This document shows, piece after piece, positions 16,439 through 17,738 of a stretch of 64,000 bases of DNA. The translations under genes were made by a program, and so were the position numbers. The notes beneath the pieces were generated by a model. It was given only the letters and a program-made list of their open reading frames with translations. It had not been told where the DNA came from and searched no databases. This stretch comes from an uncultured Elusimicrobia bacterium (GTDB lineage: Bacteria; Elusimicrobiota; Elusimicrobia; Elusimicrobiales; UBA9959). The DNA is taken from the NCBI GenBank assembly GCA_903917735.1, contig CAIXBR010000093.1, positions 72,227 to 136,226 on the forward strand, read 5' to 3'. Positions within the stretch are counted from its first letter, which is position 1; each line of letters starts with the position of its first letter.

Positions 16439-17439
16439 ATGGAACAACGATCACAAAAAGTCATAATGATGATGCCCAAAGACGCCGCCTCCGCTGCTGG
16501 CGGCTTCAAACCGATTTCAGCCGAGTACACCTCCGCCGACAGGCTTATCGCCTGGAAAGCCCGCTGGGGCATTAACAGGATGGCGTACCAGGTGAAACCG
16601 GGCTTTACGCGCTCGGCAACCCGACGGCGGCTTCCCCCGTCTTCGCAACTGCGAATTACAAACTAAGCTTCGACGCGCTAAGAAGGAATCTAAACGGCGT
16701 CACAGCCTGGCTGCTGGTGCTTAATACCAAGGGCATTAACGTTTGGTGCGCGGCTGGTAAAGGAACTTTCGGCACCATGGAGTTGACGCGCTCTATCCAG
16801 GAAGCAGGTCTTGAAAGCCGGGTGTCTCACCGGTCTATTATCCTCCCCCAGCTGGGCGCTCCGGGCGTAAGCGCCCAGAGGGTAAAGGTTTACACCGGCT
16901 TCTCCGTAGTCTACGGCCCGGTCAGGGCGGAGGATATTCAGGAATTTATGAAGCTCGGCAATAAGGCTACTCCGGAGATGCGGCTGGTCGGGTTCGGTTT
17001 CACCGACCGGATAATACTTGCGCCGATGGAACTGGTATCTTACGGGAAATACCTGCTGCCTGCCGCATTACTGCTTTATATTCTTGGAGCGAAGAACGAC
17101 GCGCTTCTTACGGTGTTTACGCTTATTGCGTCAACGGTACTGGTCCCGGCGCTGCTGCCCTGGCTGCCGGGGCGAAGTTTCACGGTTAAAAGCGCTTTTG
17201 CGGGTCTTTTAGGGATGGCGGCGGCGGTCCCTCTTCTGCACTTTGGGACGCTTGCGCTGGCGGCGAGGGTTCTGATCTACGTGCCGGTGGCTTCGTTCAT
17301 CGGCTTCCAGTTCACCGGCTGCTCTACTTATACTTCTTTATCGGGCGTGATGAAGGAGATGCGCGCATCGCTGCCGGTACAGGCCGTCTGCGCGGCGGCT
17401 GGCCTGCTTATGTTGCTTGGAGGTGTTTTATGGCGCTGA
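16439..17439 (+). CDS. hgcA: Mercury methylation corrinoid protein HgcA, interrupted by a 1-nt frameshift as assembled
   Basis: GINVWCAAGKGTFG cap-helix motif (Cys codon 16747..16749), then about 5 TM helices. The N-terminal 55 aa are in ORF 16439..16666. Switching frame at 16598..16606 restores ...YQVKPG/LYALGNPTAASPVFATANYKLSFDALRRNLNGVTAWLLVLNTKGINVWCAAGKG. The restored product is 333 aa. Confidence 0.85.
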
Positions 17440-17738
17440 AATATCTGAAGGGCGTTTCTACGCTGAAGCTGGACGTGAATAAATGTATAGGCTGCGGCAT
17501 GTGCTCCGAGGTGTGTCCGCACGCGGTATTCAAGATAGAAGCCCGTAAGGCCGTTATCCTGGACGCGGACCTCTGCATGGAATGCGGCGCCTGCGCCGAG
17601 AACTGCCCCGTACAGGCCATCTCAATTAAAAAAGGCGTAGGTTGCGCCGCCGCCGTGATCATCGGCTTCATCCGCGGCACCGAACCCACCTGCGACTGCG
17701 GCGGCTCAGACACCGACTCCGGCTCCAGTTGCTGCTGA
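17430..17738 (+). CDS. hgcB: Mercury methylation ferredoxin HgcB
   Basis: 102 aa. Two CX2CX2CX3CP motifs (CIGCGMCSEVCP, CMECGACAENCP) and C-terminal ...SSCC. Overlaps hgcA by 10 nt. Confidence 0.88.
   Translation: MALKYLKGVSTLKLDVNKCIGCGMCSEVCPHAVFKIEARKAVILDADLCMECGACAENCPVQAISIKKGVGCAAAVIIGFIRGTEPTCDCGGSDTDSGSSCC

Follow-up and report, generated by a model that had tools for sequence, protein, structure and literature searches.

Does the organism represented by contig CAIXBR010000093.1 carry a working pair of mercury-methylation genes, or a pair in which one gene has been inactivated by the loss of a single base? This question is raised by a 64,000-nucleotide (nt) stretch of the contig (positions 72,227 to 136,226 of the forward strand; GenBank assembly GCA_903917735.1), hereafter called the window, which derives from an uncultured Elusimicrobia lake bacterium. 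An initial annotation made from the sequence alone had recognized adjacent hgcA and hgcB genes, with hgcA divided between two open reading frames (ORFs) by one missing base, and had proposed that the status of the organism as a methylator or the bearer of a dead gene depends on that base. We find that the locus is a genuine hgcA-hgcB pair. Furthermore, as judged from the assembled sequences, the frameshift is private to one assembly and the lineage carries intact hgcAB.

Three ORFs define the locus as written: 16439..16666 (75 amino acids), 16717..17439 (240 amino acids, with a GTG start), and 17430..17738 (102 amino acids). The first two, which together make up hgcA, differ in register by one base, and the insertion of one base at the GGG run at 16600..16602 produces one ORF of 333 amino acids. 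Specifically, frame 1 from position 16603 reads LYALGNPTAASPVFATANYKLSFDALRRNLNGVTAWLLVLNTKG and joins without a seam to the ...MAYQVKPG sequence of the first ORF, which otherwise continues out of frame to a stop codon at 16664..16666. The second ORF opens with MLNTKGINVWCAAGKGTFG. The third ORF corresponds to hgcB, and its translation includes the motifs CIGCGMCSEVCP (17484..17519) and CMECGACAENCP (17574..17609), Cys72, and a C-terminal CC (17730..17735). The cysteines of the HgcB protein (C19-C22-C25-C29-P, C49-C52-C55-C59-P, Cys72, and C101-C102) thus form two CX2CX2CX3CP motifs, an internal Cys, and a terminal pair. The ORF coordinates, the hgcA Cys codon at 16747..16749, the CMECGACA sequence and terminal CC of HgcB, and the 10-nt overlap between the two genes are all as the initial annotation had reported them.

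The start of hgcA can be placed at either of two ATG codons. Gene callers applied to sibling contigs from other assemblies (see below) use ATG 16466, which yields a protein of 324 amino acids. We favour ATG 16439 because the first nine codons from this position (MEQRSQKVI) are kept in frame in P0122 and in L008, the equivalent locus of the Elusimicrobia metagenome-assembled genome (MAG) SKS5.bin41.

The assignment of the pair to the mercury-methylation families is supported by profile searches, which had been suggested as a check when the genes were first noticed. The repaired 333-amino acid HgcA protein reaches a score of 392.8 bits (E = 1.2e-117) with the NCBIfam equivalog NF040863 (HgcA_corrinoid, ‘mercury methylation corrinoid protein HgcA’), whose curated cut-off is 275 bits, and the alignment spans profile positions 4-320 of 325. 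Similarly, HgcB scores 124.3 bits (E = 1.3e-36) over the whole of the NF040864 profile (HgcB_ferredoxin, positions 1-93), for which the cut-off is 99 bits. Given the E-values obtained with these two equivalogs and the fact that both scores exceed the curated cut-offs, the match is far beyond chance, and the identification of the pair stands. Indeed, the pair exhibits every testable feature of HgcA and HgcB apart from an unbroken reading frame in one assembly.

The nature of the missing base was established by using sibling contigs, which were found by an exact look-up of the HgcB protein across other metagenome assemblies. Judging from their record names, these contigs appear to be part of the data set on stratified lakes by Buck et al. 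2021 (PMC8121793), which consists of NovaSeq 2x150 reads assembled with Megahit, both as single samples and as co-assemblies. The names correspond to the ENA samples SAMEA6872762, -773, -781, and -795 and run ERR4193245, which probably belong to project PRJEB38681. Contig L053 (European Nucleotide Archive (ENA) ERZ18625568, BUCK21-1_SAMEA6872773 scaffold_241, 55.6 kb) aligns with window positions 6466..27439 (20,975 bases) without a mismatch, and the only gap is a G at 16600..16602. GGGG is also present at this site in L054/L001, L005, L006, and the Logan contig L007, and this is true of every sibling contig that covers the site. The change is therefore from CCGGGGC to CCGGGC at Gly55/Leu56. 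The initial annotation was correct in placing the loss of exactly one base within 16598..16606 and in expecting that a single insertion would restore 333 amino acids, but the lost base is a G rather than the C that it had considered probable.

Six contigs, the longest of which is 63,670 bp, encode the intact 324-amino acid protein (P0121), whose sequence is the same as that of the repaired window protein. The broken form is on record only as P0019, a 220-amino acid product that is 100% identical, begins at ATG 16777 (MELTR), and lacks the cap-helix Cys. It is encoded on a single 140,396-bp contig (NCBI and ENA), from which the window presumably derives. Of the other sibling contigs, L055 matches the window with 100% identity across 6,005 bases, and L060 differs from window positions 19474 to 37598 by one single-nucleotide polymorphism (SNP) and by no insertion or deletion (indel). 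In total, ~37 kb was compared with sibling contigs, and the missing G is the sole indel outside a strain-variable tract at 18897..19797, with few SNPs. No further mutation was found in hgcA or hgcB relative to these contigs. Among related loci from species-representative genomes, 45 of 45 encode HgcA as one in-frame segment across the site followed by hgcB. Thus, the uninterrupted frame is absent from the window and present in both the sibling contigs and the related loci. The choice between methylator and dead gene, which was said to hinge on one base, is largely settled at the level of the lineage by the intact contigs of the same strain.

The strain-variable tract at 18897..19797 lies at the boundary between genes for a cupin and an ABC-2 permease. 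In sample ERZ27313089, contigs L054 and L060 match the window except for dense SNPs and indels in this tract, which is located at the contig ends. This pattern indicates the presence of co-occurring strains with a mosaic segment.

Other searches for the two alleles were uninformative. Exact-sequence look-ups of the broken products (240, 75, and 66 amino acids, and the 220-amino acid P0019) gave no matches, and a scan of Joint Genome Institute metagenomes for either allele with the pattern GCGTACCAGGTGAAACCGGG[N]CTTTACGCGCTCGGCAACCC gave 0 hits. A search of the literature for hgcA frameshifts turned up only unrelated papers.

As written in the window, the hgcA allele would be non-functional. 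The product of the 5′ ORF consists of 55 native residues followed by 20 out-of-frame residues. After the frameshift site, frame 1 contains no ATG, GTG, or TTG start before GTG 16717, and so a re-initiated product would be without three strands and one helix at the beginning of the corrinoid-binding domain. In the structural model described below, these elements are E46-50, E59-63, H66-75, and E81-86.

We favour the interpretation that the missing G is an artefact at the level of the consensus or assembly, and not a property of the organism, with a probability of roughly 0.55. This interpretation is based on the confinement of the loss to one assembly and on the intact gene in the same strain from sibling samples. 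In addition, the sequences flanking the site carry zero SNPs relative to the intact sibling, and there is no secondary decay. The frameshift site also lies in the 50-nt segment with the highest GC content of the region (0.70), and it is here that several low-coverage sibling assemblies break. Specifically, some sibling contigs stop at 16509 or 16552 and others begin at 16591, 16696, or 16719, such that the breaks bracket the site. Because these low-coverage assemblies break around 16509..16719, the consensus near the site may rest on few reads.

We also considered whether the breaks could represent an assembly-graph bubble between GGG and GGGG alleles. This was rejected because the offsets fit no Megahit k value and because identical ends recur among apparent re-assemblies of the same samples. 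Low coverage in a GC-rich stretch is the simpler reading of the contig breaks, which are not evidence of polymorphism. Likewise, an assembly riddled with errors is ruled out by the single indel in ~37 kb and by the gene map, a greedy ORF map that is dense with long ORFs and shows no sign of widespread frameshifting.

Several observations weigh against an artefact. The length of the contig (140 kb) suggests decent coverage. The sibling contigs are partly non-independent, as the identical ends of several point to re-assemblies of the same samples; at least three samples cover the site. Illumina/Megahit assemblies seldom produce single-base deletions in short homopolymers, and a 1-nt deletion in a four-base run would therefore be a rare error if the contig was assembled from NovaSeq reads with Megahit. 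Moreover, apart from its one indel, the window is clean and shows no excess of split genes, and strain mixtures do occur in this population, as exemplified by the tract at 18897..19797 in ERZ27313089.

These same observations lend weight to the alternative that the missing G represents a real loss-of-function allele, either very recent or minor, that arose by slipped-strand deletion in the run of four G nucleotides and whose subpopulation was dominant in the sample or co-assembly. A change from four to three G nucleotides is a typical spontaneous slippage mutation, and we give this alternative somewhat less than an even chance. However, the broken form is present on one contig, whereas the intact protein is present on six and GGGG is found in a seventh (L007). 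With 0 SNPs over 21 kb relative to the intact sibling, the variant would need to be extremely young, and there is no secondary decay in hgcA, hgcB, or the promoter region. If the allele is real, then a clonal lake Elusimicrobia methylator has been caught segregating a brand-new hgcA knock-out. Such a natural isogenic pair would let one ask whether the loss of hgcA is neutral or selected in situ, at a locus wired to an arsenic operator.

A second alternative concerns the identity of the proteins rather than the missing base. The pair could be a non-methylating paralogue with another function, either a gamma subunit of the corrinoid iron-sulfur protein (CFeSP)/acetyl-CoA synthase or a member of the ‘HgcAB-like’ fusion family. 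Pfam sees just a CdhD/CFeSP domain in the repaired HgcA (PF03599, 61.8 bits, residues 49-169), with Fer4 families matching HgcB, and ‘acetyl-CoA synthase subunit gamma’ is the name given to relatives in some databases. A search of PDB sequences with HgcA also returned CFeSP large-subunit chains (2h9a and 4c1n; E = 1e-11, residues 51-172) and no HgcA chain, and the HgcAB model surfaced solely in a fold search. Nevertheless, we consider a paralogue of this type very unlikely, because both the HgcA and HgcB equivalog models are passed and because the separate adjoining hgcB with its terminal CC, the NVWCAAGK cap helix, and the five-helix membrane domain are all there. The acetyl-CoA synthase/CFeSP gamma identity (NF003195) was rejected with 75.8 bits against a cut-off of 306 and a match limited to the C-terminal 120 profile positions. 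The HgcAB-like fusion identity (NF043039) was rejected with 204.2 bits against a cut-off of 285, and the genes here are two and separate.

Structural predictions are consistent with the assignment to HgcA. The AlphaFold model of the intact protein (pLDDT 88.6, pTM 0.80) consists of an alpha/beta domain followed by five long helices (residues 186-206, 210-233, 239-257, 262-286, and 292-323). The top match for this model in the PDB library by Foldseek is 9a0b_A, from a deposited model of the HgcAB complex (E = 1.3e-19, 42% identity over 324 columns), and the next matches are the CFeSP corrinoid domains of 2ycl, 4c1n, 2h9a, and 4djd (E ~1e-7). The corrinoid-binding fold whose absence would have counted against the initial annotation is therefore predicted for the repaired protein. 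In an alignment of 42 HgcA homologues, residues N92, V93, W94, C95, A97, G98, and K99 are invariant. The frameshift falls within the KPGLYALG motif, where P45 and Y48 are invariant and G46 and L47 are at least 90% conserved (324-amino acid numbering).

Full-length HgcA would also arise from the window sequence if the G run caused a programmed −1 frameshift of the ribosome or slippage during transcription, but this explanation has a negligible chance of being correct and is effectively refuted by lack of conservation: the passage from frame 2 to frame 1 is formally −1 and the site is a short homopolymer, but A-AAC-CGG-GCU does not contain a slippery heptamer of the form X-XXY-YYZ, three G nucleotides are too few for efficient slippage, and the frameshift is found in 0 of the 45 related loci and in no sibling contig.

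Based on family membership, HgcA would use its cytoplasmic corrinoid-binding domain, in which the cap-helix Cys is expected to ligate cobalt, together with its five-helix membrane domain. Methyl-cob(III)alamin would serve as the donor in the transfer of a methyl group to Hg(II) by HgcA, and the corrinoid would then be re-reduced by HgcB, which carries the C-terminal Cys pair. The locus resembles that of Pseudodesulfovibrio mercurii ND132 in gene order, the CFeSP-like domain, the N(V/I)WCA(A/G)GK cap helix, and the five transmembrane helices of HgcA, and HgcB of that species has the same two CX2CX2CX3CP motifs, internal Cys, and C-terminal CC. The two pairs differ in the 10-nt hgcA/hgcB overlap and the 1-nt hgcA deletion, both of which are in the window, and the HgcA protein of the window is ~42% identical to the modelled reference HgcA (9a0b). 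The corrinoid-binding domain is homologous to that of the CFeSP large subunit (AcsC/CdhE) of the Wood-Ljungdahl pathway (2h9a, 4c1n, and 4djd). Unlike CFeSP, however, HgcA lacks the N-terminal [4Fe-4S] and TIM-barrel domains and has a Cys-bearing cap helix and a membrane domain.

The closest relatives of the locus are found in other Elusimicrobia MAGs, and methylators from this group have been reported by McDaniel et al. 2020 (PMC7438021). The nearest hgcA loci, including those of GWC2_61_19 (L013) and SKS5.bin41 (L008), encode HgcA proteins with 66-79% identity to that of the window and have syntenic flanking genes in the arrangement acr3-arsC-(hesB)-arsR <-> hgcA-hgcB. The MAG loci are in frame, and the window alone has the deletion. 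The placement of the organism is further supported by TypA/BipA (34094..35932), for which all named top matches are Elusimicrobia/Elusimicrobiales MAGs with up to 92% identity.

Upstream of hgcA, and transcribed divergently from it, is an arsenic resistance operon headed by arsR (Table 1). In ND132, an ArsR-like gene is also located upstream but is co-transcribed with hgcAB (bioRxiv 10.1101/2022.10.17.512643), whereas arsR in the window is divergent and heads a full ars operon. Synteny of the ars genes is kept in L008, L009, L011, and L013. The HesB/IscA-like gene is located between arsR and arsC, and is kept in L008 and L013. Directly downstream of acr3 is a gene for a PhnD-like periplasmic binding protein (PF12974, 13132-14049, minus strand), which is also adjacent to ars genes in L013 (66%). 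This protein may bind oxyanions in connection with arsenic sensing, and not phosphonates.

The likely start codon of arsR is ATG 16362, which gives a protein of 127 amino acids. The longest ORF reaches 16425 (148 amino acids, as called on sibling contigs), but this is probably 21 codons too long because the conserved promoter and operator would be inside it and because homology with L013 begins at residue 22 (Met22). With the shorter ORF, the arsR transcript would be nearly leaderless.

A perfect inverted repeat, CATATGC-N8-GCATATG (16364..16385), is located between arsR and hgcA. The intergenic DNA has otherwise diverged among the window, L008, and L013, and this repeat is the sole block of it that is fully conserved. 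The candidate arsR promoter matches 11 of 12 consensus positions, its −10 element sits inside the spacer of the palindrome, and neither GTCAAG nor TATAAT varies among the three aligned loci. A second, shorter ArsR subtype (ELCVCH) is found in loci L009-L012, along with a different palindrome (TTCGTTAT-N8-ATAACGAA). In these loci, a perfect TATAAT follows the palindrome and is positioned 6-8 nt before the hgcA ATG, which suggests that their hgcA mRNAs are leaderless. The assignment of the operator is supported by the fact that it changes together with the regulator subtype.

In six of six loci of the Elusimicrobia clade, a divergent arsR with an ELCVC motif is located within ~100 nt of hgcA. 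In several other phyla, arsR and hgcA point in the same direction. The arrangement in the window resembles R773-type ArsR operons in having ELCVC in the DNA-binding domain, which we take to be the metal-site motif from what is known of R773 ArsR, a palindrome over the −10 element of the regulator's own promoter, and downstream arsC and acr3 genes. It differs from these operons in that the operator region is common to divergent hgcAB and that the operon includes a HesB/IscA-like gene.

Presumably, ArsR would act at one shared operator to repress hgcAB as well as its own ars operon, and arsenite would relieve this repression. Because hgcAB is transcribed divergently from arsR-hesB-arsC-acr3 across a shared candidate operator and promoter region, the pair is probably arsenite-responsive. 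This proposal concurs with the study of an ArsR-like regulator of hgcAB in P. mercurii ND132 (bioRxiv 10.1101/2022.10.17.512643) and with the reported co-localization of ars genes with hgcAB (PMC7438021).

Table 1. Coordinates of the hgcAB locus, the divergent ars operon, and the candidate regulatory elements. Positions refer to the window unless another locus is named.
Feature	Position	Strand	Description
hgcA, interrupted	16439..17439	+	Two frames; 333 codons after restoring one G
hgcA 5′ in-frame part	16439..16602	+	Codons 1-54 plus 2 nt; from translation
Frameshift site	16600..16602	+	GGG in the window; GGGG, CCGGGGCTT (Pro-Gly-Leu), in covering sibling contigs
hgcA 3′ part, other frame	16603..17439	+	First usable start GTG 16717 (240 amino acids)
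Corrinoid-binding domain	16589..16953	+	CFeSP large-subunit homologue; PF03599, PDB CFeSP chains, Foldseek
Cap-helix motif NVWCAAGK	16738..16761	+	Cys codon TGC 16747..16749, within GINVWCAAGKGTFG
HgcA C-terminal membrane domain	17020..17436	+	Five long helices; AlphaFold model, with concurring hydropathy peaks
hgcB	17430..17738	+	2x[4Fe-4S] ferredoxin; 10-nt overlap with the hgcA 3′ end
Candidate ArsR operator	16363..16386	.	Palindrome ACATATGC-TATTATAT-GCATATG; perfect arms 16364..16370 and 16379..16385
Sigma-70-like arsR promoter	16372..16400	-	−35 TTGACG (16400..16395), 17-nt spacer, −10 TATAAT (16377..16372)
arsR	15979..16362	-	ArsR/SmtB metalloregulator with ELCVCEL motif, divergent from hgcA; NF033788, 66.9 bits (cut-off 55)
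HesB/IscA-like gene	15626..15916	-	96 amino acids, Cys-rich; Pfam Fe-S_biosyn, 37.8 bits, over threshold; under NCBIfam cut-offs
arsC	15179..15610	-	Pfam LMWPc, 85 bits
acr3	14124..15182	-	TIGR00832, 447 bits (cut-off 282.8)
Second-type palindrome region	L009 1961-2000; L010 ~2050-2100; L011 5905-5950; L012 ~125-170		

Two other regions of the window merit brief description. A PycTM/2TM-effector-like membrane protein (PADLOC E = 8e-10) adjoins a 209-amino acid protein with no family match and a 1334-amino acid protein with AMP-binding, PP-binding, and hexapeptide-repeat domains (49096-50346 and 50497-54501, both on the minus strand). No cyclase partner for the PycTM/2TM-effector-like protein was recognized. 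At 8570-9189 (minus strand), a 117-amino acid ORF with a weak match to MFS_1 overlaps a 104-amino acid ORF in another frame. The 117-amino acid ORF may be what is left of a real transporter gene, given that it is also called on the sibling contig L053.

The locus is an uncharacterized ortholog of a known system, as both the presence of hgcAB in Elusimicrobia and the linkage of hgcAB with arsR and ars genes have already been published (PMC7438021; bioRxiv 10.1101/2022.10.17.512643). As a modestly useful by-product, the comparison provides a concrete, conserved operator and promoter candidate for the control of hgcAB by arsenite in the Elusimicrobia clade. More broadly, many studies judge the mercury-methylation potential of an environment by whether hgcA is present in its MAGs. 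With one missing base, gene callers emit a 220-amino acid fragment without the catalytic Cys, and the MAG would be scored as hgcA-negative or ‘truncated’ despite the intact gene in the population.

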